A stretch of DNA of 64,000 bases. Origin: a virus. The notes under the pieces are model-generated. The model saw only the letters and a program-made list of their open reading frames with translations. It did no database searches and was not told where the DNA came from. The stretch is from IMG/VR virus record IMGVR_UViG_3300026290_000001; one strand, given 5' to 3'. The translations under genes were made by a program, and so were the position numbers. Numbering within the stretch: the stretch's first letter is position 1; every line of letters starts with the position of its first letter. Positions 1-63,199 of this stretch are shown here, piece by piece.

Positions 1-224
1 CATATACAAGTTAATATTGGTATTAATGAGATATGGTTTAATATCTATGAATCGGAAGTATTGATAACTATTGATACAAAAAAGAAAGAAATTTACGTTG
101 ACTGTGAATTATCAAACCATCATTTAACTAGCAGTATGTTATACGAATTATATATGATTACTGAATTATTAGAAACTAAATGGGATGTGTTTGAGGAATT
201 ATTAAAATAGAAAGGAAAGGTAAA

Positions 225-896
225 TTGATTAAAGTAGAAAATATAGAAGTGTTCAATTTTCAAGGGGCTTTAAGGGGCATGCGGAATCCTTTAGAATCTT
301 GGGATAAATCAGATAGTTATTGGAATGACACTACTATTGAAAGTGTCAAAGATTTCATCATTGGTGAAAAAGATATGACACTTGCTTTAAAACTTATTAA
401 AGCAGGAAATGAACATGCAAAATTCATGCGTCAAATTTTTGTCTCAATGGATATTACTGCGCCTTTATATTGGTGGAAGGAAGCAGACACATATAAAATT
501 TCTACAGTAGCAAACAGTACATCCACTATGCACAAAATGGGCAGCAGACCATTAATTTATGAAGATTTTTCTTGGGATAAATTCTTTGAAACAAATTTAG
601 GTAATATTACTGATGAATATATCTACAACTCAATTGAAAAATACCGACAGGATACTTTATCTCACTTAAACGAATTGATAGAAATATGGCAGGAACGAAG
701 AGATAAGAAAATATGGCTGGCAATAATTCAAAACTTACCTTCTTCGTTTAATCAAATGAGAACTTGGACTGGTAATTATCAAGTATTAAGAAATATGTAT
801 TTTCAGAGACGTAATCACAAGTTAAAGGAGTGGAAAGATTTTTGTAAGGTGATTGAGGAGTTACCTTATAGTGAATTGATTATAGTGGAAAAATAA
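225..896 (+). CDS. ThyX-like protein (FAD-dependent thymidylate synthase fold suspected); canonical RHR motif not seen
   Basis: 223 aa, ThyX-typical size; C-terminal pattern LP..(12)..N.R.L...QRR resembles ThyX family; aligned region reads WWKEADTYKISTVANSTSTMH instead of RHR..S...S.RY; sits next to dNMP kinase and nucleotidase. Confidence 0.35.
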   Translation: MIKVENIEVFNFQGALRGMRNPLESWDKSDSYWNDTTIESVKDFIIGEKDMTLALKLIKAGNEHAKFMRQIFVSMDITAPLYWWKEADTYKISTVANSTSTMHKMGSRPLIYEDFSWDKFFETNLGNITDEYIYNSIEKYRQDTLSHLNELIEIWQERRDKKIWLAIIQNLPSSFNQMRTWTGNYQVLRNMYFQRRNHKLKEWKDFCKVIEELPYSELIIVEK

Positions 897-13104: not shown

Positions 13105-14397
13105 TCAGTCATGAGATGAATTGGCTCTGTTCTGTTCATATATAATCCATGATTTTCTTGCATTAATTCTTTGCATGTTAGATATTTTCGGTGTCTTCAT
13201 ACCTCTGGGTGCATTACTAAAATCTATTTTTTCACCATCTATACCCATAAGAATGGCATAACCCGTAGACATTCTACCTTTAATAAAATATTCATTACCT
13301 ATATACCTTACTTTATCAAACTTCCTAAATCCTTCTATTTTACCTGTAGGTATCTTCTGATGACTTCTTACTCCTTTTGCCTGTTGGTAATCGCCTTTAG
13401 GGATACACTTTTTTAATACAGCTTTTTCAGTTTTAAAGCTTACATCAATTAACCCTATATCTTCAATATTATTTAAACAGGCAATAGCTACAGCATCGTA
13501 GTAATGCTCTTTTGGTAATCCCATTAGCTGTCTATGTTCTTTGGTAATAAATCCAAAGGTTTCTTTTGCATTTGGTAGCTGTCTTAATAATTGTTGTCTT
13601 ATACTATTCATCTGTGTTGTGTGTTTTAATTGTCCTTTAATTTTACCATTCTTCTTTAATTTAATTCCTCCTTTGTGCAAACTATTATGACAAGTTTTAC
13701 AAAGTGTAATTAAATTTTCTGCATCATCTGAGCCACCATTTTTTCTAAAAACTATATGATGTACCTCTAATCTGCTGTCTTTACTTTTTCCTTTGCAATA
13801 CTGGCAAATATATTTATCTCTACTTAATACATAAGCTTTAGTATTAGCAAATCCATAATTAGTTCCTTTTTGATAAAGCCATTTATTACTTAATACTGCT
13901 GGATTTTTTAAAGCATGTGGGTCAAATGTTGCTGTTTCTATTATTATATTTGTAATGGGCATTATTGATTTTGCAAAATCAATTTCTTTTAAGTGTGAAT
14001 TAATTTTACTTGTCATTGTAGGAGAAAATCTATCTTTTTTAATGCTGTTTTTCCTATTATTAAATCTAGGTTCCCTATATCTAGTTTTCCTATTCCTTCT
14101 AGTTCTCCTATATTTAGCTCTTTTGTCCATTTTGTCAGATATATCATTTCTAATTTCTACTTCTGATATATAATACACTTCATTTTCGTCATTTGCTACT
14201 GCACTTCCTATTTTACTACTACCAGTATCAATTCCTAAAGTTAAATCTTGTGTATAGTCTGTAGCATGATATAGTAATTTAATTGTAAATGGAGTTCTTC
14301 TTATGCATTTTGCTTTACCATCTTTTAACAATAATCTTGCTATTGCTGGTTTACAAGGCATTAAAGGACTCCCATCTTCATTAATTACATAAACCAT
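13105..14397 (-). CDS. iscB: IscB, OMEGA-family RNA-guided nuclease (PLMP domain, split RuvC, HNH)
   Basis: N-terminus VYVINEDGSPLMPCKPAIARLLLKDGKAKCIRRTPFTIKL (PLMP domain); RuvC-I LGIDTGSSKIGSAV; Arg-rich bridge helix RRTRRNRKTRYREPRFNNRK; RuvC-II ETATFD; HNH CQYCKGKS...LEVHHIVFRKNGGSDDAENLITLCKTCHNSLH; RuvC-III HYYDAVAIA; domain order exactly as in described IscB proteins. Confidence 0.85.
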   Translation of the reverse strand: MVYVINEDGSPLMPCKPAIARLLLKDGKAKCIRRTPFTIKLLYHATDYTQDLTLGIDTGSSKIGSAVANDENEVYYISEVEIRNDISDKMDKRAKYRRTRRNRKTRYREPRFNNRKNSIKKDRFSPTMTSKINSHLKEIDFAKSIMPITNIIIETATFDPHALKNPAVLSNKWLYQKGTNYGFANTKAYVLSRDKYICQYCKGKSKDSRLEVHHIVFRKNGGSDDAENLITLCKTCHNSLHKGGIKLKKNGKIKGQLKHTTQMNSIRQQLLRQLPNAKETFGFITKEHRQLMGLPKEHYYDAVAIACLNNIEDIGLIDVSFKTEKAVLKKCIPKGDYQQAKGVRSHQKIPTGKIEGFRKFDKVRYIGNEYFIKGRMSTGYAILMGIDGEKIDFSNAPRGMKTPKISNMQRINARKSWIIYEQNRANSSHD

Positions 14398-14681
14398 AAA
14401 ATCAAATCCTTTCGGATAAATACTCTGCTTAAAAGCAGGTTATGCGTATCTATATACTATTACCATATATAGAATTCGTCCTCATCTCGACAATGATAAA
14501 ATAGCTTATATGTATATCACACCGAGCCTTACCCTCCAACTCTACTTAGTGATATACGATAGAGCAATGGTCTGATGCGTCAACCAAAGGTATCATAACT
14601 ATTCTATCGTAGTATAAATTTCTCTATACTAAGTCTGGTGAACTTAGACTTTAGAAGCCTCCGACTTTAGTCGGGGGTAGT
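14398..14681 (-). ncRNA. candidate omega RNA of IscB (structured 5' region; guide expected at the high-coordinate end)
   Basis: 284-bp non-coding gap directly upstream of iscB with higher GC than surroundings and several stems readable by eye (CCTCCGACT/AGTCGGGGG, TACGATAGAG/CTATTCTATCGTA, AGTCT..AGACT, CTGCTT..AAGCAG). Confidence 0.45.
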
Positions 14682-14927
14682 TCACTCTATTTCAGGATTG
14701 ATAGATAAATCATCTTTGCTTGTACTATTTACATTAGATAAATTATCTTCATTGGACAAATCATCATTAATAATTTGACTTAATTCGTCTATTTTAGAAC
14801 TTAATTTGATAATCTCTATCTGATACATATTATTTTGTAAACATAAAGTGACTACATCTAAGGGCAAATTACTATTGTTTATTAACTCTGCCAGTTTAAT
14901 ATTAAAATCACTTATAATAAAAATCAC
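14682..14927 (-). CDS. hypothetical protein
   Basis: 81-aa ORF upstream of IscB locus. Confidence 0.25.
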   Translation of the reverse strand: MIFIISDFNIKLAELINNSNLPLDVVTLCLQNNMYQIEIIKLSSKIDELSQIINDDLSNEDNLSNVNSTSKDDLSINPEIE

Positions 14928-47255: not shown

Positions 47256-47331
47256 TGGAGCCGAGTATAGGATTTGAACCCATAATCTGTTGTTTACAAG
47301 ACAACTGCCTTATCAATTTGGCTAACCCGGC
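47256..47331 (-). tRNA. tRNA-Thr (anticodon UGU), CCA encoded
   Basis: Minus-strand 76 nt: acceptor GCCGGGU/ACUCGGC, anticodon stem GUUGU/ACAAC with loop CUUGUAA, T-arm AUGGG-UUCAAAU-CCUAU, discriminator U + CCA. Confidence 0.75.
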
Positions 47332-48380: not shown

Positions 48381-49202
48381 TTAAGGATTTTCTATTACTT
48401 TAGCAGGTCTATATTTATCTTTATAATTATGCCATGCTTTTCTCTGCCATTCTAATTGTTTTTCCCTCCAACAACTCCTACAAAATTTTCTTCTATTAGA
48501 TGTTGCTTTTATTAATTTTCCACATTCATTACAATTAATAATTTTTGGATTACCATTATACAAATCAAAGTAATATCCAATATTATCAAAGGTAGTTATT
48601 TCAAAAACTACTATTCCATTTTCCTTGATATTATTCATAAATATAAGATGAATTTTCCCCTTCATTCTAACATCAACCAATCCTAAAATCTCTAATTCAT
48701 TAATTATGGCATTTATTTTATACTCATTATTAGATATTTTAGACACTTCTAATATCTCATTATATGTATTTTGATTACCACTTATATAATTATATTTTAA
48801 AACATTTCCGTATTTTAATTTATGTATTTCTTTATATATCTTCATTTCTACTAACAAAACAAACAGAATTTTTTTATAATTATACTCTATATCTAAATTA
48901 TTAATGTATTCAATTTCTTCGTTTGTTATAGGAATACTATCAATAATTATTAAAGGGTTATCTTTTCTACCTCCTTTTTTGAGTGCAGTATTAATTTGTT
49001 TGAAATATAAAACATCATTGAAATTAACTATATACTTCTTGCAAAATTCATATAATTTTTCTTTTCGTTGTTTAGGTTTTATGCCAAGTTTTTTCCAATA
49101 TTTAACTAACAAAACCAATTCATAATTATGACGTTCAGTTAAAAATCCATGTTGTTCAATTTGTTTTGCATATTCTTCTTCATTGTATTTTTCTTGAATC
49201 AA
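48381..49202 (-). CDS. hypothetical protein with C-terminal zinc ribbon
   Basis: 273 aa; C-terminal CNECGK...CRSC motif; translationally coupled to upstream 934-aa gene. Confidence 0.3.
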   Translation of the reverse strand: MIQEKYNEEEYAKQIEQHGFLTERHNYELVLLVKYWKKLGIKPKQRKEKLYEFCKKYIVNFNDVLYFKQINTALKKGGRKDNPLIIIDSIPITNEEIEYINNLDIEYNYKKILFVLLVEMKIYKEIHKLKYGNVLKYNYISGNQNTYNEILEVSKISNNEYKINAIINELEILGLVDVRMKGKIHLIFMNNIKENGIVVFEITTFDNIGYYFDLYNGNPKIINCNECGKLIKATSNRRKFCRSCWREKQLEWQRKAWHNYKDKYRPAKVIENP

Positions 49203-52003
49203 ATAATCACTTCTTCCAACTTGTACTTTTTATTCAAGTAAACAATACCCCCTTCTTTATTAGGCATGGGAAAAAATATAGATTCTTTTGTGTTTGATTT
49301 AATATTTGAAAAAATATACTTACCAAAGGAATTCCATAAAATATCTTTGTTTGAACTTTTATATTCACAATAAAATATTTCAACTAAATAATTAGTTAAT
49401 TCATATGCGTATGAACATATTTCAAACATTCTACTTTTAAAGTCATCATAAATATTATTTACAATACGATCAGATTCTTCATCAAATTGCTCTTTGTTGG
49501 CATTTTGATTAATACCCATAGTATTCAAGTCTTTTAATTCTTTCATAAATTTTTTATACTCATTTAATACTTTCTGATAGGTTTCTTGATTTTTAGGAAT
49601 ATCATTTTTCATATATAATTTATACAAATCACCTATTTTACTTGTTTTTAATTTACTTTTAATATCAAAATCAACATTTTCAATATGTTTACACAATAAA
49701 TTCATTACACTGTCACTATCAATTACTGGTAAAAATCTATAATATGCATCCACAAAAGACTGTTCTTTTTCATTACAATTTTCCTTAATTAATAGTTCAT
49801 TTAATGTTAATCCAAATTTTTGCTGACTAGACAAATCGTTACTTTTGACATATTTTTTATATTTATTATAGGTATTTTTATAAAGATGAATAAAAAAATA
49901 TGGATGTTTATCCAATAATATTTTATTTAAAAATTCCTTTTCTTTTTTAACTTTTTCATCATCATCTTTATAAATTTTTTGCCTTTCAATCCAAATCTTA
50001 GGAATGCCCTTAACTTTTTTACCTATTTTTGCTTTATCAATTTGAGCAGATTGAAGTTTCGTACACATTTTTAATCTATTTATCAATGTTTGATATTCCA
50101 AACTTTCTTTATTAAAAAGAGGGAGTAAGGCATAAGCACTTGTACTTTTATTTGTTATAGAGCCTATAGTGGAACCAAAGGCGAAAAGATCAGCTTTATA
50201 TAAATCTTCTTCTGTAAATACCATAGATATAGATTTAGGTGCATCATAAACCACTGGCAACTCATCTTGAAATATTGAATTTAATATTGTTTGATCAGAA
50301 GTAGTTGCAATAATATCAAAATCCCAATCACTTCCAGCCCAATTAAGAGTTTCATAACCATGTATATTTACTATTACTCCACCATCATCACAATACTTAT
50401 ACCATTTATTTAATTTATCATGATTAATTAAATTTAATTTCAAATGTTCTGATTTATAAGTAAGTGGTGCTCTCATTGAATCTACGATACAAACATTTTT
50501 TTTATTCCAATAATTACAATAATACTCTTTTTCTTTAAGCAATCCAGTAACCTTTTGCCCGCAAATATGTTGCATCATAGCATAGGGATCACTTACTAAA
50601 ACCTGAAAATTTCCATCTAAAATAATTTCACCAAGACAACCTCTTTTTATGATATTGTTAGTATATTTATAAACTTTATCTCTGATATATTTATCATTTT
50701 TTAATTCATGATTAACTATCAAACTTTTTAACCAATAATTATTACTATACTTTAAAAAATATTGAATACTTTCTTGAGTTATATTTTCTCCTAATAAAAA
50801 TAATAACGTATAATATATATTATCAAAATTGACCCCAGTAACCCAATCAACAAAAGGAGTACAAATCTTCTTAATATCTTTTTGGTTTAAATCCAAAGTC
50901 TGTAAAAATTGATAATTCATTTTTAATATATCATTAGGTTTTTTAGGAGAAGTTAAACTAACACCCCATTTTAAATCATTCATCTCGCAATTATGTATAT
51001 ATTCTTCTAAACTACCAAACGCATTCCAAAGTTTAAATTGACTTTCCGATACAACCACATCGATATCCCTTAAATCAACCTGTATTGGATTATTATTGTC
51101 TTTGTATATAGTATTTATTATATAATTACCATGATTTTCATTTTCACAATATTCATCTATATCAAATACGCAGAGCATCCCTTTCAGAAAATTCTGCCTG
51201 ACACAAAATTGACCAGGAATATAATCTAATCCTAATTCTTCTGCCCATTCTTTAGCTTTACTTGGTTTAATCAACCCTTGACCATCAAACCTATTAAAAC
51301 TCAACTCTACTTCTTTAATTACAATATCATCATCTTTATTTTCTTCTGTTTCAGTTACAAAATTAACATTAACTTTTTGCTTAATTTCATAATCAGGCAC
51401 TACACAAAATTTAGGCGTACTTACTATTTTTGTAGATGAACCCGACAATCCTTTATATGCATTGTATTTAGAAGGGCATAGGGGTATATTTTTATCTCTA
51501 TTATTATCTAAAATTTCATTAAGTTGATTTAAAATTTTCTCGTTGCAAAATACCACTGTTGAAACTCTGGATTGACTGGCAGATGATGATAATCTAAAAT
51601 ACCGTTCAGAATTTAATAATAATCCATTTTTAAATAAATAATTATAATGTGAGTTATGTTCCATTACTATAGTTATGTACTCAGGAATAAAAAGCATATC
51701 TAAAATATTATTTTGTAATTCTATTATTCTACTTGAGTTTTCCTTTGAATATATTTGTTTTTTTAACCTATCTCTTTCTTTATACCATTGTTCAAGTTGT
51801 ATATAATTAATTTCTTTACCAGTTATTTTTCTAATACTTCTAAGAATTTGATTGTCTGATAAAGCAATTAACTCACCATTTTGTTTAGCTTGTTGTGGAG
51901 TTAATTGTATATCATACCCATATTCTTTAAGCCTAGATGATTTAAATTTCATAGTATATAATTGTCTATTTATCAATATTTTTTGCCTCCAATAAATCTT
52001 CAT
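49199..52003 (-). CDS. large hypothetical protein (replication/recombination module candidate)
   Basis: 934-aa ORF overlapping both neighbours (operon); no unambiguous catalytic motif recognised by eye. Confidence 0.4.
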   Translation of the reverse strand: MKIYWRQKILINRQLYTMKFKSSRLKEYGYDIQLTPQQAKQNGELIALSDNQILRSIRKITGKEINYIQLEQWYKERDRLKKQIYSKENSSRIIELQNNILDMLFIPEYITIVMEHNSHYNYLFKNGLLLNSERYFRLSSSASQSRVSTVVFCNEKILNQLNEILDNNRDKNIPLCPSKYNAYKGLSGSSTKIVSTPKFCVVPDYEIKQKVNVNFVTETEENKDDDIVIKEVELSFNRFDGQGLIKPSKAKEWAEELGLDYIPGQFCVRQNFLKGMLCVFDIDEYCENENHGNYIINTIYKDNNNPIQVDLRDIDVVVSESQFKLWNAFGSLEEYIHNCEMNDLKWGVSLTSPKKPNDILKMNYQFLQTLDLNQKDIKKICTPFVDWVTGVNFDNIYYTLLFLLGENITQESIQYFLKYSNNYWLKSLIVNHELKNDKYIRDKVYKYTNNIIKRGCLGEIILDGNFQVLVSDPYAMMQHICGQKVTGLLKEKEYYCNYWNKKNVCIVDSMRAPLTYKSEHLKLNLINHDKLNKWYKYCDDGGVIVNIHGYETLNWAGSDWDFDIIATTSDQTILNSIFQDELPVVYDAPKSISMVFTEEDLYKADLFAFGSTIGSITNKSTSAYALLPLFNKESLEYQTLINRLKMCTKLQSAQIDKAKIGKKVKGIPKIWIERQKIYKDDDEKVKKEKEFLNKILLDKHPYFFIHLYKNTYNKYKKYVKSNDLSSQQKFGLTLNELLIKENCNEKEQSFVDAYYRFLPVIDSDSVMNLLCKHIENVDFDIKSKLKTSKIGDLYKLYMKNDIPKNQETYQKVLNEYKKFMKELKDLNTMGINQNANKEQFDEESDRIVNNIYDDFKSRMFEICSYAYELTNYLVEIFYCEYKSSNKDILWNSFGKYIFSNIKSNTKESIFFPMPNKEGGIVYLNKKYKLEEVII

Positions 52004-54186: not shown

Positions 54187-55014
54187 CTATTGATTAGATA
54201 GTAATTTTTCTTTATGTTCCCTTACACGTTTAATTGCTAAATTAAAATATTGATCATGTGGTTCACTCAGACTCCATTCAAAACCTATGTAATTTCTTTC
54301 AGTATTTAAACAAGCTATCGCTGTTGTGCCTGAACCTATGCAATTATCTAAGACTAAATCTCCTTCATTTGTATATGTTTTAATTAGATATTCAAATAAT
54401 TTTACTGGTTTTTGAGTGGGGTGTGGTAATTTTTCTTTAGAATTTGAATTAACTATAGGATTATATATTACAGTTGATGGATTTTTTAATTTTGCATTGT
54501 ACACATCATAACTTCTTCCAGCATAATCTGTATTAAAAACAATTTCATTATCTTTTCTTTTTGAGATAGAACTTCTAAAATTAATATTATTATTTTCTTG
54601 CATTTGTTTCATTCTTTCGCTTTTACGTTCTATCATTTGTCTATTATATGTATATTTATTTTTTGCAAATATTAATATATTTTCATGATATTTTAAATGT
54701 CTATATTTTGCATTTGCAAAATTACTCGCTCTATCTTTTTCCCATATTAGTTCTTCTTTAAACCAATCAATATTACTACAAATTAATTTGCTTGTAAATG
54801 GTTGACTTGCTGTTAATACTATAGCACCATTATCTTTTATAATTCTTTTATACTGTTCCCAAAGTTTATCAAAAGAAATTAAACTATCCCATTTTGCTAT
54901 TGTAGTTCCATAAGGTAGATCACATAAAATCATATCTATACTTTTATCAGGTAATAAACACATACCATTTTCACCAATACAATCTTCGTTATAAATAGTA
55001 TTTAATTTAATCAA
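54187..55014 (-). CDS. DNA methyltransferase (N6-adenine/N4-cytosine amino-MTase)
   Basis: Motif IV-like ILCDLPYGTT near N-terminus and SAM-binding LVLDNCIGSGTTAIA near C-terminus. Confidence 0.75.
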   Translation of the reverse strand: MIKLNTIYNEDCIGENGMCLLPDKSIDMILCDLPYGTTIAKWDSLISFDKLWEQYKRIIKDNGAIVLTASQPFTSKLICSNIDWFKEELIWEKDRASNFANAKYRHLKYHENILIFAKNKYTYNRQMIERKSERMKQMQENNNINFRSSISKRKDNEIVFNTDYAGRSYDVYNAKLKNPSTVIYNPIVNSNSKEKLPHPTQKPVKLFEYLIKTYTNEGDLVLDNCIGSGTTAIACLNTERNYIGFEWSLSEPHDQYFNLAIKRVREHKEKLLSNQ

Positions 55015-55089
55015 TTATGTATTATTCCTCCTATATTTATATTACTAAAATAATACTACGACTCAAAATTAAAAAATTATTTCTTACTC

Positions 55090-55413
55090 TTAATCTTTTT
55101 TCTCTTTCTTTTCCTTAGATTTTTTTGCCTTTTGTAATCTTTCTCCCATTTCTTTCTTTTGAGCCTCAGTTAACTTTTTCTTTTTGGTTGGTGCTCTAAA
55201 TGAAATCAACTTCTTATCACAAACAAATTCTTTTCCCACTAATTCATTATCTTCATCAAATTGATCACTAACATGCTGATATGATTCAGGATACTGTTTA
55301 CAAAGTTTATCCAGTTTGTTTAAATCTGCACGAATAAAAGTTATTATTTGTGCTTTTTTAGAATCTTCATCAATCCCTACGCAAGTATAACGCTCCATTT
55401 TTTCTAATGCCAT
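55090..55413 (-). CDS. hypothetical protein with Lys-rich C-terminal tail
   Basis: 107 aa, C-terminus KKKKLTEAQKKEMGERLQKAKKSKEKKEKKD. Confidence 0.3.
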   Translation of the reverse strand: MALEKMERYTCVGIDEDSKKAQIITFIRADLNKLDKLCKQYPESYQHVSDQFDEDNELVGKEFVCDKKLISFRAPTKKKKLTEAQKKEMGERLQKAKKSKEKKEKKD

Positions 55414-55454
55414 ATGTATAAATTCCTTCTTTCATTTTTATATTAATAAAATAA

Positions 55455-56204
55455 TTAAAATTCCACTAATCTATTTTTCGCTATTTCACAATATTTTTCT
55501 TCTAATTCAATTCCAATACATTTACGTTTAAGATTTCGTGCCGCCAATAAAGTTGTTCCTGAACCACAGGTAAAATCTAAAATAAGATCGTTTTCATTTG
55601 TGTATGTATTAATTAAATATTCCATTAATTCTAATGGTTTTTGTGTAGGATGAAATAAATTATTATTTGGATTTGCAAAATTTAATATATTTTTAGGATA
55701 ACCTTTAGCATTACTATTTCCAAAATGCTTTTCTTTCCCAAAAGTATATTCTCCATCCACTTTATTTTCTCTACTTGGTCTATTATTATTAAATTCTCCA
55801 TAAATTAACCCTTGCGGATTATAAATGCATTGATTTTTATAAAAAACTAAAACATCTTCTATTGCTCTCATTGGTTGTTTTTTAGCATTTAAATGACCAC
55901 TTGGTTTAGTTTTTATCCATTTCCAATCATATTTATATTCTTTAATATTACTAATTCTTAAAAAACTACTAAAAGGTTCTCCTCCAAACAATAATGTAGG
56001 TGTTGTATTTTTTGTTAATTTATGTAATCTATCCCACATGTCATTAAATTTGATAATTTCATCCCATTTACATTTAGTAGTACCGTATGGTGGGTCAGTA
56101 ATTATTGCATCAAATTTAATACCTTTCTCAATAATCTTATCCATTACCTCTAAACAATCACCTTGAAATAATCTTATGTATTCGTCTTTATAGTATAATT
56201 TCAA
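55455..56204 (-). CDS. DNA methyltransferase (amino-MTase), paralog of 56249-57034
   Basis: IITDPPYGTT motif and LDFTCGSGTTLLAA SAM-binding motif; N- and C-termini near-identical to neighbour, central region differs. Confidence 0.8.
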   Translation of the reverse strand: MKLYYKDEYIRLFQGDCLEVMDKIIEKGIKFDAIITDPPYGTTKCKWDEIIKFNDMWDRLHKLTKNTTPTLLFGGEPFSSFLRISNIKEYKYDWKWIKTKPSGHLNAKKQPMRAIEDVLVFYKNQCIYNPQGLIYGEFNNNRPSRENKVDGEYTFGKEKHFGNSNAKGYPKNILNFANPNNNLFHPTQKPLELMEYLINTYTNENDLILDFTCGSGTTLLAARNLKRKCIGIELEEKYCEIAKNRLVEF

Positions 56205-56248
56205 TTTATGTAAATATATCTCCTTTCATTTTTATATTAATAAAATAA

Positions 56249-57034
56249 TTAAAATTCCACTAATCTATTTTTCGCTATTTCACAATATTTTTCTTCTAAT
56301 TCAATTCCAATACATTTACGTTTAAGATTTCTTGCCGCTAACAATGTTGTCCCTGAACCACAGGTAAAATCTAAAATAAGTTCGTTTTCTTTTGTGTATG
56401 TATTAATAAGGTATTCTAATAGTTCAATTGGTTTTTGAGTCGGATGTAATTTTTTCCCTGACATACTAGCGTTGCTTAAAGTATAAATACTTGTTGGATG
56501 TCTATCTTTATATTCTTTATGCCCCAAGTCTTTTATGGTATGTCCTTCTCTTAATGTGCTATTTCTTGAACCATAAAATGTTTTATTAACTTTTTTTATA
56601 TCATCTCGTTTTGTTTTTTGAGGATAATAATTCATTTCATTACCTTTTGAGAAAACTGCTTTTGCTTTACTAAAAATTAAAATATTTTCATGTACTCTAC
56701 CTACTTGAAAATTCATCATTTGAAAATTAGATGGTTTTACTTTATCCCAAATAATTTCATATCTAAATAGTTGAGGATTACTCATAATTAAAGCACTCGT
56801 AAAAGGTTGAGAACCATTCAATACTATTGCACCTTTATCTTTGATTAATTGAGTAATTTTATCCCACATCTTATCAAAAGGAATTATCGTGTCCCATTTA
56901 CATGCTGTAGTACCATAAGGTGGATCAGTTATTATCGCATCAAATTCAATACCTTTCTCAATCAATTTATCCATCACTTCTAAACAGTCACCTTGAAACA
57001 ATCTTATGTATTCATCTTTATAGTATAATTTCAT
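56249..57034 (-). CDS. DNA methyltransferase (amino-MTase), paralog of 55455-56204
   Basis: IITDPPYGTT and LDFTCGSGTTLLAA motifs; upstream/downstream non-coding sequence also duplicated. Confidence 0.8.
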   Translation of the reverse strand: MKLYYKDEYIRLFQGDCLEVMDKLIEKGIEFDAIITDPPYGTTACKWDTIIPFDKMWDKITQLIKDKGAIVLNGSQPFTSALIMSNPQLFRYEIIWDKVKPSNFQMMNFQVGRVHENILIFSKAKAVFSKGNEMNYYPQKTKRDDIKKVNKTFYGSRNSTLREGHTIKDLGHKEYKDRHPTSIYTLSNASMSGKKLHPTQKPIELLEYLINTYTKENELILDFTCGSGTTLLAARNLKRKCIGIELEEKYCEIAKNRLVEF

Positions 57035-57377: not shown

Positions 57378-58139
57378 TTAATTTTGATTATTATTTTTTT
57401 GTGTTTCACTTCTTTGTAAATTAGATTGAATTTTATCAGTGTAGACCAAACCTTGTACTTCTACCTCGCATTTAACTTGGTTATTAAAATTCTTTTTGTC
57501 GTCATATAGACCAATAAAAGTAGTGCAATAATGCTTTTCTTTTGTCCAAAAATCATTATTGTACCTAATTAAATGCAATTCATCTTGAAGTATTTTATTA
57601 TATCGTTGGATGGTACGGGAATCAGTCACCAATTGTTTTAATTTTCCTTGTGTTAAATATCCAAAATTGTTTTGAGTATTAGTTGCTCTTCTACAGGCAA
57701 TGAAATATCTTATCAAACTAAATTTTCCCAAATTGGAACTGCTCAAATATTCAAATATACTATCTATCTCTTTATTTTTAATAATCAAATAATCATTAGC
57801 AGGGGTAGGTGGCAATTCAACATAAAAAAGAAAATTTTTATTAATAATATCATCTGTAGAAATAATATTATAACGTAAATCATAAAAATTAATTATTATT
57901 TTTTTATCTTTCAAAGAAGATAGTACATTTATTAATGTTTTTACAATTCGTTTGTTAGAATTACTATTTATATACATATAATCACAAAGCATTTCTATAT
58001 TACATAAACTAATTGAATGATAATATATATAATTTCTATATAATAAAATAAGTACTGTTAATTCTTCGTTAGATATATTTAAGTCATCATACCATTTATT
58101 AGGTATTATAATAGTTGACTCTTGTAAATTGCTATTCAT
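57378..58139 (-). CDS. hypothetical protein
   Basis: 253-aa ORF. Confidence 0.3.
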   Translation of the reverse strand: MNSNLQESTIIIPNKWYDDLNISNEELTVLILLYRNYIYYHSISLCNIEMLCDYMYINSNSNKRIVKTLINVLSSLKDKKIIINFYDLRYNIISTDDIINKNFLFYVELPPTPANDYLIIKNKEIDSIFEYLSSSNLGKFSLIRYFIACRRATNTQNNFGYLTQGKLKQLVTDSRTIQRYNKILQDELHLIRYNNDFWTKEKHYCTTFIGLYDDKKNFNNQVKCEVEVQGLVYTDKIQSNLQRSETQKNNNQN

Positions 58140-59713: not shown

Positions 59714-60592
59714 TTAAATAGCACAATTATTCATACTTTTTCTTATATCATCTTGTGAAGGATGTAAATATATTTGAGTAGTAGAAAGCGAACCATGACC
59801 AAGTATCTGCTGAAGAGCCTTGAGATTCCCACCATTTTCTAAAAAATTAGTAGCAAATACATGTCTTAATGAATGACAAGTTATTACATTACTATGTTTG
59901 TTAAATATTCTTTCAACACTACTACTTTCTAATTTTTCACTTTTGTTGCTTAAAAATAAATATTTACTTCCTAATACATTATAAGCATACTTATAATTCT
60001 TTCTATCATCAATCGCTTTTTTAATAATCTCAATAGCAGTTTCATTCAATGGTATTATTCTTTGCTTACTTCCCTTACCAATAACTTTAAGATTCTTTCT
60101 TTTAAAATTAATATCATCCAACTCAATATTTAATGCTTCAGATATTCTTAAGCCAGTATTCAGAAGTAAAGCAACTATATAATAATTCCTATCACATTCA
60201 TTCTTCCTTATTCTTTCCATAAATTTTATTGCTTCAGATTTAGTAATACTAGTTGGAGATGTTAATTGTTTTTGTATGCGTATATAATCCTGTCCCAATA
60301 TCACCAAACTATCCTGATACCCCATCTTAACCAAAAATTCATTATAACTTTTCAAAGCACTTAACCTTCTATTTATTGTCTTAGCATCAACATTTCTTTC
60401 TTTAAGTAAATATTCCTTATACTCCGCAATCTGATCTCTACTAATAATCTGGGGTTCAATTCCAAAATACTCAAAAAACAAACCAATATCATGAGAATAA
60501 GATTTTATTGTATTGATAGATTTACCTTGTTCTACTAGGTGGTTGATGTATTCGGTTAAATAATTTTCATTTGCAACGAGATTCATATTCAT
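59714..60592 (-). CDS. tyrosine recombinase (XerD-like)
   Basis: Motifs NTGLRISEALNI, HSLRHVFATNFLENGG, LGHGSLSTTQIYLH. Confidence 0.8.
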   Translation of the reverse strand: MNMNLVANENYLTEYINHLVEQGKSINTIKSYSHDIGLFFEYFGIEPQIISRDQIAEYKEYLLKERNVDAKTINRRLSALKSYNEFLVKMGYQDSLVILGQDYIRIQKQLTSPTSITKSEAIKFMERIRKNECDRNYYIVALLLNTGLRISEALNIELDDINFKRKNLKVIGKGSKQRIIPLNETAIEIIKKAIDDRKNYKYAYNVLGSKYLFLSNKSEKLESSSVERIFNKHSNVITCHSLRHVFATNFLENGGNLKALQQILGHGSLSTTQIYLHPSQDDIRKSMNNCAI

Positions 60593-60826
60593 AATTTATC
60601 TCTCCTTTAGATTAATAATATAATTTAATATAAGTATATGCTTTGGTTAAATTAATCATACAATATAATTTAAATTATTGCAAGTAAAATATAAAAATAA
60701 ATATAAATATTTTATTTCAATGAATAATATCCTTTCTATTGGTTAATTTATATGAAACAAGTTTCTTATGTAGTGGGTTGGGATAAACCCAATCGCAAGG
60801 AGAACACAGGTTTTATAATATTCATA

Positions 60827-61060
60827 TTAACAGATTTTGCTAGGTTCAATAGTTTGACGGTAATCAGAGAGATAAACGACTTTAGGATGGTTAATACGTT
60901 GCCATTTAAGTTGTTCTTCTCTGATCCGTCTTTTTTCTTCTATTTTAATGTTCTTGTTGTATTGCTTTATTTCTTTTCTAAATCTCTTATCTCTTTCAGC
61001 AACAATTTGAAAGTAAATCCAGGTAATTATTAGAATACCTATTCCAATTAAAATTTTCAT
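60827..61060 (-). CDS. small membrane protein (uncertain)
   Basis: 77 aa, N-terminal TM helix then basic region. Confidence 0.2.
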   Translation of the reverse strand: MKILIGIGILIITWIYFQIVAERDKRFRKEIKQYNKNIKIEEKRRIREEQLKWQRINHPKVVYLSDYRQTIEPSKIC

Positions 61061-61444
61061 TTACATCTTCCTTTCTTAAATTTTGCTCCAATCATTATCA
61101 TAATGTTTATATCCTTGTGGTTTATTTAGTAATGCTTCTTTTATAGTTGCATGTTCAGAGATAATTTTTCACTTTCAGTTTCCTATACATAACCGTTTTC
61201 ATTGATGATAAAGTTATACCAAGGTACTAATAATGCTATTGGCATTGCAACTCTCCTTAATATCATTTCCATTCATTAACATCTCCTTTATGATTTGATC
61301 TATATGGATTGTTTGAATTTCTGGAGTAAGGATTTGTGTGGGTGAACCACCATTGTTGAATGTAGAAAGAAAAATAGGATATCGTTTCTTGTGGATTAAT
61401 ACCTATCCAGTCTAGAAAAAACATTGTAGGTAAACCTCCTTTCT

Positions 61445-62160
61445 ATGTGGAAATGTGTGTAGAAATATATATGGAATTTATATAGTTAAATGTGTTATTT
61501 GATTGATTAATAATATGATTTATTTTTAGATTTTAGAAATGGTAAGTTGTGGATTGTAGGATGGGTTATAAATATGTTTTTAAAGCAAATTTAATTATTT
61601 AGTTTATTTGTAGTCGGGAAGGTATGTGGAACAGGAAGGAATAATTGAGCAGAAAGTAGAATGAATATTGATATATTGGGAGTTTAGATAGTTTTTAGGC
61701 ATGAATTTTGTGTTAATTTTGATTATTGGAAGATTGATACAGAAGGTTGATTTTTTGTTGTCGGGGAAATTGAGATGAAGTGGTGAATTTTTAGGGTGGT
61801 TTTTTATTGAGTTTATAAAGGAATTTGAGTGTAGAAATGGTGATTAGGTGGGAGGTAAGGGGTAAGGGTAGGGAGAGAGGAAATAGGGTGGTTTTAGAGT
61901 GGATTTTGTTGGAGTTTTGTTATAAAGATTGTGGGATTTTTGTTTTTGGGAGTGGGAGGATATTGGGAGAATGTAGATGGGATGGATGTAGGTGAGATGG
62001 ATGGTTTGACGAGTGAGAGACGATGTGAATTTTGGTGGTTTTAGGGATATTTTATGTTGTCGGTATGGAATTTTTGTTTATGTGTGGAATAGATGTGATA
62101 GCGAACATATGTTCGATTAAAGTGACCGGAAATTTGTAAACTGGGGGTGGTATGGGTAGG
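61445..62160. other. C-depleted (G/T/A-only on plus strand) non-coding region with G-tract repeats; canonical G-quadruplex motif at 61850-61873
   Basis: Very few cytosines across about 700 nt on plus strand; motif GGG-aggtaa-GGGG-taa-GGG-ta-GGG; no ORFs. Confidence 0.5.
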
Positions 62161-62282
62161 TATATATAATACTGATATAATAATAGCACATGACAGGCTA
62201 TAACTCCCGGTATAATGGCATTAGCAAGCTATCTGATAATGCAATATAATGTATGATTATATTGTATTGGGTGAATTGGATC

Positions 62283-62450
62283 GGGGAAATAGCAGGGAAA
62301 ATAAGTGGGAAATAACCTGGGAAGCTGGTAGGGAAATGACTGATCAGGAAGCATCAAAAAAACTGGTAGTATCGGTAATGAAAATAGTAAAGATAATAAG
62401 TTGTCGTGGAAATCGTTTTTAATAACAGAACAGATGTTCGGGAAATGATT
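62283..62450. repeat. iteron-like GGGAAAT/GGAAAT repeats
   Basis: At least six spaced copies (cGGGGAAATa, aGGGAAAAta, tGGGAAATa, aGGGAAATg, tGGAAATc, cGGGAAATg) upstream of a promoter-like element. Confidence 0.35.
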
Positions 62451-62485
62451 ATAAATTAATAAAATAAAAATAATTATAAAAATAC

Positions 62486-62520
62486 TTGCATCTATGTTGG
62501 CAATATGATAGTATAGTATA
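62486..62520 (+). promoter_or_regulatory. sigma70-like promoter candidate for plus-strand small-gene cluster
   Basis: TTGCAT followed at about 17 nt by TAGTAT/TATAGT, then RBS AAGGAGGTG and ATG at 62601. Confidence 0.35.
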
Positions 62521-62600
62521 TAGATATGATCTTTGATAATAGCATAGTAACCTTAGTTTGCCTTACGCAAGCTATCTTTACAAGAAAGGAGGTGGCACGA

Positions 62601-62726
62601 ATGATAATGACTGAAAAAATGAACATAGAAATTGAAAACATTGAAAACATTTTAGCTGATAATGAACTATCCGATACAGAAAAAATCAAGCTTATTGAAC
62701 AGACTATAAAAGCAATAAGAAGGTAA
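62601..62726 (+). CDS. 41-aa small protein, copy A (start refined to ATG with RBS)
   Basis: RBS AAGGAGGTG 8 nt upstream; MIMTEKMNIEIENIENILADNELSDTEKIKLIEQTIKAIRR; near-identical copy at 62980-63105. Confidence 0.4.
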   Translation: MIMTEKMNIEIENIENILADNELSDTEKIKLIEQTIKAIRR

Positions 62727-62760
62727 TACCTTAAATAAAAATAGGAAGGAGGTGAAAAAA

Positions 62761-62940: not shown

Positions 62941-62979
62941 AACCGAGATTTTATCTTAACAGGAAAAGAGGTGAAAAAA

Positions 62980-63105
62980 ATGATAATGACTGAAAAAATG
63001 AACATAGAAATTGAAAACATTGAAAACATTTTAGCTGATAATGAATTAACAGATAGTGAAAAAATCCAGTATATTGAACAGACTATAAAAGCAATAAGGA
63101 GGTAA
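62980..63105 (+). CDS. 41-aa small protein, copy B
   Basis: RBS AAAGAGGTG; MIMTEKMNIEIENIENILADNELTDSEKIQYIEQTIKAIRR. Confidence 0.4.
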   Translation: MIMTEKMNIEIENIENILADNELTDSEKIQYIEQTIKAIRR

Positions 63106-63199
63106 TACCTTTTACCCGATAGCACTCACACCATAACAGAGTGCTATTCGTAAAGGGTATTAAAAACCCTAAAAATAAAATTAGAAGGGAATTGATAAA

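Follow-up and report, generated by a model that had tools for sequence, protein, structure and literature searches.

GGGAAAT repeats in the non-coding hub of a distant SPbeta-like phage and their possible relation to the SPbeta pac region

The DNA analysed here, referred to as the window, is a stretch of 64,000 nucleotides (nt) from the virus record IMGVR_UViG_3300026290_000001 of IMG/VR. Judged by its proteins, it belongs to a distant SPbeta-like phage of an uncultured host. This assignment follows from a protein of 934 amino acids (aa) encoded at 49199-52003, a single-chain RNA polymerase of the YonO type. It shares 55% identity with the homologue of Bacillus phage BUCT082 (Spbetavirus) and 24% with that of SPbeta, and identities across SPbeta, Clostridium phage c-st and Enterocloster phages range from 24 to 29%. 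Genes up to position 60592 are located nearly all on the minus strand and those from 62601 onward on the plus strand. The minus-strand set comprises a 2014-aa tail-type protein, other long open reading frames (ORFs), a transfer RNA (tRNA) gene and several DNA methyltransferases; its long ORFs are taken as putative structural genes by analogy with SPbeta. Between the late-direction and the early-direction gene clusters lies a divergent, gene-poor region of 1.9 kb with a non-coding part of about 1.1 kb, termed the hub in the following, and the cumulative GC skew along the window is lowest here, where gene orientation diverges. The variable centre of the hub harbors the subject of this study, a group of GGGAAAT repeats.

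Metagenome contigs of 134.8-138.1 kb encode proteins identical to those of the window, and each of them shares the non-coding region with 100% identity. Further relatives were collected through homologues of a neighbouring recombinase with 52-85% identity (L014, L015, L017, L018 and L070) and through the DNA pattern of the conserved core (L033, L036, L043, L050, L052 and L056). The strand-composition block described below was not part of the search pattern, so that its presence in relatives is an independent observation. A comparison of the hub pattern with 185,579 representative bacterial and archaeal genomes gave 16 chance matches and no relative, and neither nucleotide searches of a phage collection nor a viral-contig search by the recombinase gave anything useful.

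Exact copies of GGGAAAT start at 62284, 62307, 62331 and 62440, all on the plus strand, and the same strand carries the near-copies GGGAAAAT (62295), GGGAAG (62319), GGAAG (62347) and GGAAAT (62408). The array proper (62283-62351, plus strand) consists of GGGGAAAT, GGGAAAAT, GGGAAAT, GGGAAG and GGGAAAT at a period of 12 nt, followed by GGAAG. The first-pass annotation had described GG(G)AAAT copies at irregular spacing; the copies are where it placed them, but the first five units are regular, with G-runs starting at 62283/4, 62295, 62307, 62319 and 62331 (62283-62337). Enrichment of the motif relative to the whole sequence, the test proposed at that time, is found at the local scale and not beyond it. 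The window as a whole contains 10 copies of GGGAAAT against 12.7 expected, half of them (5/10) within 61764-62446. Dinucleotide-preserving shuffles of the local 190 nt (62270-62460, n = 5000) never reached the four local copies of GGGAAAT (0.17 expected) or the six of GGGAA[AG] (0.84 expected), and a chain of five units at 12-nt period appeared in 38 of the 5000. In addition, the longer form TCG[GT]G?GAAAT has four copies in 64 kb, all on the plus strand and all within 61761-62446 (61761, 62281, 62404 and 62438). An ORF of 57 aa at 62249-62422, which one pipeline reports as a gene, was rejected: it lacks a ribosome-binding site, and in L070 a stop codon interrupts it after 13 codons.

The hub in which these copies are embedded has a fixed order of elements, namely a C-free block, a first LexA box, the invariant TTTGTAAA (62133-62140, plus strand) followed by a short G+C-rich segment, a promoter-like element termed Pc together with a dyad, a variable segment, a hairpin-AATTTCGGRRAT-ATAACAG(G) element, a G-free block (in most relatives) and an early promoter termed PE. 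The first block (61444-62100, plus strand) is G/T-rich and almost C-free over 660 nt (A189 C12 G203 T256), with not a single C from 61763 to 62009 and a GC skew of up to +1.0. It contains several conserved islands. One of them, TTTTTTGTTGTCGGGGAAAT (61751-61770, plus strand), holds a copy of the repeat motif, TCGGGGAAAT, and the string GTTGTCG following a T-run is found 336-394 nt to the left of the LexA box in the window, L015, L017, L036 and L056. A direct-repeat pair of the type ACGA(T/G), TTTGACGAGTGAGAGACGATG (62007-62027, plus strand), lies about 75 nt from the LexA box and reads TTTTACGATGTTGGGACGATGG in relatives and TTTTACGATAGCGATTACGATG in the yonR-yonP region of SPbeta. The island TTATGTTGTCGGTATGGAATT (62052-62072, plus strand) is placed 47-49 nt left of the LexA box in nearly all lineages, and TTATGTTGTCGGTATG is the last conserved island within the C-free block before that box. 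The block also contains GGGAGGTAAGGGGTAAGGGTAGGG (61850-61873, plus strand), the single canonical G-quadruplex motif in the 64 kb when both strands are considered; L017 has a near-identical motif, and the island is conserved in L056. A G-quadruplex array was rejected as a description of the block, the single canonical motif not being general.

The first LexA box, CGAACATATGTTCG (62102-62115), agrees at 14 of 14 positions with the LexA (SOS/Cheo box) consensus of Bacillus subtilis (PMC8270828, Table 1) and is invariant in the relatives found through the recombinase (L014, L015, L017, L018 and L070). Sites of the form GAAC-N4-GTTC occur twice in 64 kb (0.5 expected), both times in the hub. A second LexA-like box, GAACAGATGTTC (62428-62439), is fused to a copy of the repeat motif, TCGGGAAAT, so that both together span 62428-62446 on the plus strand; this box is conserved in L014 and degenerate in L070. 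The boxes lie 106 nt upstream of the -35 element of Pc and 46 nt upstream of that of PE, respectively. In SPbeta-like phages, LexA boxes control small antirepressor genes (10.1101/2025.11.27.690993). The first box of the window equals the Firmicute consensus, but neither box of the window overlaps a recognisable promoter: no promoter-like site covers either of them on either strand, and sigma-A promoters at the first box are unconvincing in both directions. The homologous place of SPbeta reads GTACATTCGTTC, where GTAC is a mismatch to the consensus, and the SOS boxes published for SPbeta do not include this site (PMC8270828, Table 1). A third GAAC-N4-GTTC site, with no obvious promoter overlap, is located 10 kb downstream among early genes (L001, at 72212 in window-equivalent numbering).

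Pc (62221-62250, rightward on the plus strand) consists of TTAGCA, 18 nt and TATAAT and matches the consensus at 10 of 12 positions; all lineages retain a -10 element of the form nATAAT at a spacing of 18 nt. Its -10 element is overlapped by a dyad of 29 bp (62239-62267), ATGCAATATAA-TGTATGA-TTATATTGTAT, with arms of 11 bp and a centre of 7 bp. In most relatives ATAC in the left arm is paired with GTAT in the right arm (L052 is without both, L043 and L056 keep one), and L043 is the sole exception to the conservation of the inner ATAA/TTAT. Beyond the variable segment, GTTGTCGTGGAAATCG...ATAACAG (62400-62428, plus strand) is the version in the window of a clade-wide element (hairpin)-AATTTCGGRRAT-ATAACAGG, which is present in nine lineages with ATAACAG invariant and the sequence of the hairpin variable.

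This last element links the repeats to the rest of the clade. A TCGGRRAT core stands at a fixed place before ATAACAG in eight of nine lineages, and a separate comparison revealed the copy of the ninth (L070). Since this single element is clade-wide, the GGGAAAT copies of the window can be read as its amplified copies. The array itself is much less constant. In L070, the closest relative in the DNA of the hub, it is homologous and likewise next to the dyad, with an extra GGGGAAAT upstream, the third unit changed to GTAGTAAAT and the sixth lost; such losses and gains would be expected if the number of sites matters more than each single site. L033 has motifs of the AGGAT and AGGGC type in place of GGGAAAT, and L017 and L052 are GGA-rich at this place. 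As a general property, phased G-tracts behind the dyad are weakly supported thus far.

The same variability raises the question of whether the array has any function, as a 12-nt unit multiplied by slippage in a fast-evolving spacer would give a neutral tandem repeat. Tandem Repeats Finder (TRF) indeed reports a period of 12 with 3.4 copies and 72% matches, and the array occupies the most variable part of the hub, a central segment of 150-250 nt. L070 possesses an unrelated array nearby (about 6-7 copies of TTAACATAAnnn at a period of 11-12 nt), and differences between the window and L070 strike motif and spacer alike. The internal structure of the repeats speaks against this explanation, since 5-7 bases are kept per unit while the other five differ completely, unlike the outcome of a recent duplication: GGGAA is constant in all five units and the last 5 nt of the units are unrelated. 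Furthermore, copies with the TCG prefix are dispersed at 61761, 62404 and 62438, and the motif matches the clade-wide conserved element. Overall, we consider a neutral origin unlikely.

The most informative comparison of the hub is that with SPbeta. In phages of the SPbeta type the yonR-yonP intergenic region is a divergent, non-coding region of about 1.07 kb at the head of the cluster formed by yonP, yonO and the structural genes, which is the position of the hub in the window, at the head of a cluster with a YonO-type polymerase and structural genes. It shows the same architecture of opposed blocks around a centre of about 250-400 nt with a dyad. In SPbeta, a C-free and G-rich block (one C in 150 nt) is followed by a centre of about 250 nt and a G-poor, C-rich block, read on the yonP strand; the two blocks (L088, 5331-5540 and 5770-6110) are the sole extremes of this kind in 15 kb, and BUCT082 shows a similar pattern. 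About 125 nt of the window and its relatives can be aligned with SPbeta, starting with TTTTACGAT..ACGATG and continuing over about 75 nt to GTGTGGAA..G(A/T)AC-N4-GTTC, so that the ACGAT pair, the 75-nt distance and GTGTGGAA with its GAAC/GTAC-N4-GTTC box form a shared module. Moreover, five of the six copies of TTACGAT/ATCGTAA in the 15 kb fall inside the yonR-yonP region, and its centre contains the dyad CCCTATATAA-GATACG-TTATGTAGGG. There are differences as well. At the protein level the distance is very large (YonO is 24% identical to that of SPbeta and 55% to that of BUCT082), the blocks measure 170-340 nt in SPbeta compared with longer and purer ones of 660-1600 nt in the window and its relatives, yonP lies beside the region where the window has an Xer-like recombinase, and SPbeta has no GGGAAAT-type array. 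On the basis of the shared order and the alignable module, the hub is regarded as a homologue of the SPbeta yonR-yonP intergenic region.

This homology is of interest as, in the texts describing restriction mapping and read pile-ups of SPbeta, pac, the genome opening point, and a fixed high-coverage block of about 250 bp are placed between yonR and yonP (10.1101/2021.11.22.469490; PMC8270828). The linear record of BUCT082 starts exactly at the junction between C-free block and centre, just after ...GGGAATCGAAG. A late promoter for YonO within the hub was rejected as an alternative assignment, the YonO start site of SPbeta being located upstream of yonK and outside the region (PMC5467207).

Small terminases such as those of SPP1 and lambda typically recognise phased direct repeats next to bent DNA. 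In the pacL, pacC and pacR sites of SPP1, short direct repeats and bent, A-tract-phased DNA flank the cleavage region and are wrapped by the oligomeric small terminase. Tentatively, we therefore favour a role in packaging, for which four points argue: the homology of the hub with the SPbeta pac region, the typical preference of small terminases for phased direct repeats beside bent DNA, the phasing of the flanking block, and the presence of a GGGAAT-type element at a block boundary. According to this proposal, the GGGAAAT copies would be lineage-specific, same-strand recognition motifs of a protein, amplified from the TCGG(G/A)(G/A)AT before ATAACAG and bound within the pac-homologous hub, most plausibly by the packaging-initiation machinery. 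The protein in question, for which the small terminase or else a protein specific to the hub is most plausible, would bind the phased copies and would wrap or loop the DNA, acting together with the C-free block on the other side of the centre, whose A-tract phasing predicts intrinsic curvature. That a protein binds the motifs, and which one, is what we infer here. The resemblance to headful pac regions of the SPP1 type lies in direct repeats and A-tract-phased DNA. It does not extend to the sequence, as the hub has no similarity to SPP1 pac, and whereas SPP1 pac is located in or near the terminase genes, the hub of the window is about 15 kb away from them. The absence of similarity to SPP1 pac has been stated for SPbeta, too (PMC8270828).

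Several points weigh against this proposal and keep our confidence in it low. The 12-nt period puts successive sites off one face of B-DNA. Between the window and L070 the bases of the motif change about as often as those of the spacer, and purifying selection on GGGAAAT is not demonstrated by these comparisons. L014, L018, L036 and L043 have no comparable array, and neither has the centre of SPbeta; being absent from most relatives, the array is therefore not an essential recognition site of the whole clade. Regarding the position of the cut, the mapping texts for SPbeta do not state it exactly, no paper was found that documents how the record starts of BUCT082 and BUCT083 were chosen, and the contig ends in the clade are scattered.

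For the C-free block, a function at the level of DNA shape is indicated. A C-free block is present in every relative on the late-gene side, with lengths of 0.5-1.6 kb (for example L014 3900-4850, L017 1900-3500, L018 5200-5700 and L015 500-1300). On the early-gene side, most relatives have a counterpart with inverted polarity that lacks G on that strand; the window is without this second block. In the late-side block, AA/TT steps (A-tracts) recur with a period of 11.5 bp (statistic 13.1 versus a maximum of 11.6 in 184 control windows taken from the same sequence). Markov shuffles attained this strength in 2 of 1000 cases, and in 8 of 12 lineages the highest peak of the whole spectrum falls at this period. 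A-tract phasing in such divergent lineages indicates a function in bending or wrapping of the DNA rather than at the RNA level. Strand purity has consequences of its own, as such DNA contains no G:C-containing palindrome, no TTGACA on either strand and no G-C hairpins within a single strand. Transcripts running outward would be G-free, C-rich and without start codons and would thus be ideal substrates of Rho, and inward transcription would yield G-rich RNA with a tendency to form R-loops. On both sides the G-rich strand runs 5′ to 3′ toward the centre. This polarity equals that of a chromosome terminus with FtsK-orienting sequences and is opposite to that of a bidirectional origin, whereas the surrounding gene orientation and the cumulative skew are origin-like.

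It is possible, although doubtful, that the whole hub represents a previously undescribed cis-acting phage element in which a centre of about 300-400 nt is set between two strand-pure blocks of 0.2-1.6 kb. In such an element, conserved from SPbeta to very distant relatives, strand purity itself would be functional and the GGGAAAT copies would be the recognition sites of one lineage. If this is true, strand-pure DNA would provide structure-free separated strands or an untranslatable, structure-free and G-free outward transcript, and the blocks could offer a terminase or helicase a landing pad or form an insulator that surrounds the packaging start. No description of a paired C-free/G-free architecture was found in the papers searched. 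Such paired blocks could be used as a sequence-independent signature by which the corresponding region is recognised in SPbeta-like phages and phage-plasmids that have not been cultured. Taken alone, the array is a modest and lineage-specific feature; the surrounding hub and its homology with the pac region of SPbeta are of greater value as a lead. SPbeta is a genetically tractable model phage, and thus the C-free block, the ACGAT pair, the LexA-type box, the dyad and the TCGGRRAT/ATAACAG boundary become testable in Bacillus subtilis. Two apparent features of the composition were discarded. The survival of C only in CpG, as after deamination or bisulfite treatment, is striking in 61762-62114, where it is due to the conserved TCG/ACGA islands, and is not significant window-wide or in any relative. 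A second "C-free" match at 1881-2120 consists of a gene end and an A/T-rich spacer.

On the early-gene side, the hub ends with the promoter PE, to which the repeats had initially been connected. The promoter itself, predicted as a sigma70-like TTGCAT...TAGTAT, was confirmed: TTGCAT (62486-62491) and TAGTAT (62509-62514) are separated on the plus strand by 17 nt with the TG of an extended -10 element (62506-62507), and the arrangement is conserved at the matching place in relatives. A simple promoter scan misses PE because it matches just 7 of 12 consensus positions. The relatives have TTGACA or TTGCAT, N14 and TG-A-TA(C/G/A)(A/T)AT at this place, as in TTGACA-N14-TGATAGTAT (L070), TTGACA-17-TATAAT (L017), TTGACA...TGATAAAAT (L018) and TTGCA(A/T)...TGATACAAT (L043 and L052). 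Directly upstream of the -35 element, about 40 nt (62447-62485) are G-free, almost pure A/T and similar to an UP element; this stretch sits where relatives have the long G-free block, and the sequence beside the -35 element is the same in L070. The G-free blocks of relatives contain short lineage-specific repeats, namely TCCACA in L052, TAGTGCAC in L014 and L017, GTCCCAC in L018 and, as a further one, TTAACATAA. The TTAACATAAnnn array of L070 mentioned above belongs to a G-free insertion (about 180-300, minus strand) between the ATAACAG element and PE, which is absent from the window.

The claim that the repeats lie immediately upstream of this promoter did not stand. The array ends 149 nt before the -35 element, and only the copy at 62440 is near it, starting 46 nt upstream. 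In L070, with about 190 extra nt between array and PE, the distance is about 300 nt, and L014, which is without the array, has an insertion of about 750 nt that separates the conserved element from the promoter. As the distance varies, the comparison does not support a functional link between the repeats and PE; the array keeps its place next to the promoter-like dyad at 62221-62267 rather than to PE. Operator or activator sites for a regulator of either promoter nevertheless deserve consideration, the array being located at about +26 to +95 of a Pc transcript. It starts 16 nt after the dyad and Pc, a place that is kept in L070, and the region does contain regulatory sites in the form of the perfect LexA box and the second LexA-like box. 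In addition, early promoters of SPbeta-like phages are known to have repeated operators (SPBRE, bound by MrpR/SroF) and LexA-regulated antirepressors (PMC10516654; 10.1101/2025.11.27.690993). Such a role is weakened by the variable distance to PE and by the absence of the array from most relatives that keep both promoters. Moreover, the same genome has a second promoter of the PE type at about 66218, and GGGAAAT was found neither there nor upstream of other genes. The neighbouring recombinase-like protein, finally, is catalytically intact and not MrpR-like. Taken together, an operator function appears improbable.

This neighbouring protein, encoded at 59714-60592 on the minus strand, is an Xer-like tyrosine recombinase in which every catalytic residue (R, K, HxxR, H, Y) is present; among solved structures, the best matches are XerA (5hxy, 1.5e-30) and XerD. 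A repressor with an inactive recombinase fold of the MrpR/SroF type was rejected for this gene, since all catalytic residues are intact and XerA/XerD were matched instead of MrpR/SroF. The gene is the conserved neighbour on the late-gene side, accompanies the hub in most relatives and is about 1.7 kb away from the 29-bp dyad. The dyad has the geometry of an Xer-type core site with two inverted arms of about 11 bp and a centre of 7 bp, and like the sites of the Xer/dif, cer/psi and Cre/loxP type (dyads of 28-29 bp, arms of 11 bp, centres of 6-7 bp) it is found near a complete Xer-like gene. It might therefore be a core site of this recombinase, used in dimer resolution of a plasmid-like prophage or in integration, with the repeats binding an accessory factor from which the reaction gains its directionality, comparable to cer/psi or the resolution site of Tn4430. 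Points in favour are the inner ATAA/TTAT as in dif, the catalytic completeness of the recombinase by sequence together with its presence beside the hub in most relatives, the absence of the hub element from the 185,579 bacterial and archaeal genomes and, in L015, an actin-like plasmid-segregation gene that adjoins the hub. Conversely, SPbeta has a similar dyad at the homologous place and no Xer-like gene beside it, and L069 encodes a close homologue of the recombinase (75% identity) in other surroundings, where the hub is missing. The dyad of the window, which overlaps a promoter-like element unlike Xer/dif-type sites, can equally be read as the -10 and start region of this promoter, and the repeat motif is unrelated to the dyad arms. 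We judge a recombination site of this kind to be very unlikely.

The actin-like gene of L015 (ALP_N; 1384-2581) lies, together with a small downstream gene, directly beside the C-free block, and it may indicate that part of the clade lives as plasmid-like prophages. It also recalls type II centromeres such as parC of plasmid R1, where direct-repeat arrays with a period of about 11-12 bp at a promoter are bound by ParR and form a wrapped complex. The array of the window has a similar period of 12 nt; it differs from parC in that no actin-like or adaptor gene (ParM/ParR-like) flanks it or is present in the window, and the ALP operon of L015 adjoins the C-free block, on the opposite flank of the hub.

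Besides sites for a regulator, the first-pass annotation had suggested sites for a replication initiator. What remains of this suggestion is a non-random, same-strand cluster resembling protein-binding sites, with a unit size that does not fit iterons. As in P1 oriR, the lambda origin, pSC101 and R6K, several direct repeats on one strand lie beside an A/T-rich non-coding stretch, here the 40 nt at 62447-62485. The position of the hub at the divergence of gene orientation and at the minimum of the cumulative GC skew would suit an origin, and so would the short repeats that each relative has in its G-free block (TCCACA, TAGTGCAC or TTAACATAA). The array, however, is made of a 5-7-nt core (at most the 7-nt motif) at a 12-nt period and not of iterons of 17-22 bp at a helical phase of about 22 bp. 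It is not conserved, and neither a DnaA-box cluster nor a recognisable initiator gene adjoins it: boxes similar to TTATCCACA number 30 in the window against 26.9 expected, with none in 61400-62600, and no Rep, DnaD or other initiator family was detected among ten neighbouring proteins. The 253-aa protein encoded at 57378-58139 has its sole match in PHROG 20872, of unknown function. DnaA boxes were also discarded, since repeats similar to TTATCCACA exist in L052 and form no cluster in the window. Finally, the local skew, G-rich and then C-rich on the plus strand, is opposite to that of a bidirectional origin, and apart from the one A/T-rich stretch no origin features were found. We give a phage replication origin with iterons little chance.

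An action at the RNA level appears even less credible and is to be regarded as highly improbable. Pc, conserved just upstream, could transcribe the repeats into a GGA-rich RNA that functions as a leader or, in the manner of CsrB/RsmZ, as a sponge for proteins. The corresponding segment is GGA-rich in L017 and L052, too, and a 183-nt RNA has been detected in the yonR-yonP region of SPbeta (PMC2965217). This RNA runs the opposite way, in the direction of yonP. The fold of 62257-62486 is no better than that of shuffled sequences (z = -0.34) with GGA motifs outside of hairpin loops, no terminator-like site was found, and the sequence of the array is not conserved across relatives. Rfam gave nothing relevant on 60600-62700 even at E <= 1, and its gathering scores applied to the whole window yielded just a HEARO RNA and a tRNA elsewhere.

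Behind PE, the small-gene cluster that had been noted is real and consists of tiny genes with a strong ribosome-binding site and a RadC gene. The first of them (62601-62726, plus strand) encodes 41 aa, with the ribosome-binding site AAAGGAGGTG and an ATG at 62601, and has a 90%-identical paralogue at 62980-63105. These two acidic proteins result from a direct duplication of 160 nt with 90% identity (62573-62732 and 62952-63111), at which one metagenome assembly of the phage breaks.

Elsewhere in the window, the tRNA gene (47259-47331, minus strand, 65 bits) is located inside the late-gene cluster. The HEARO RNA (Rfam RF02033, 121.7 bits) is full-length at 14475-14685 on the minus strand beside an ORF of 430 aa (13105-14397, minus strand), which suggests a mobile nuclease of the IscB/omega-RNA type inside the phage. 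A run of N6/N4 DNA methyltransferase genes at 54187-57034 comprises one gene in L001 and four in L002, contigs that are otherwise identical, and thus behaves as a variable anti-restriction cassette. At about 2100-2390 on the plus strand, the sequence reads as the C-terminal part of a tyrosine recombinase (LRHTFAS...LGHS...IYTH) with the N-terminal part missing, which may be the remnant of a truncated integrase.

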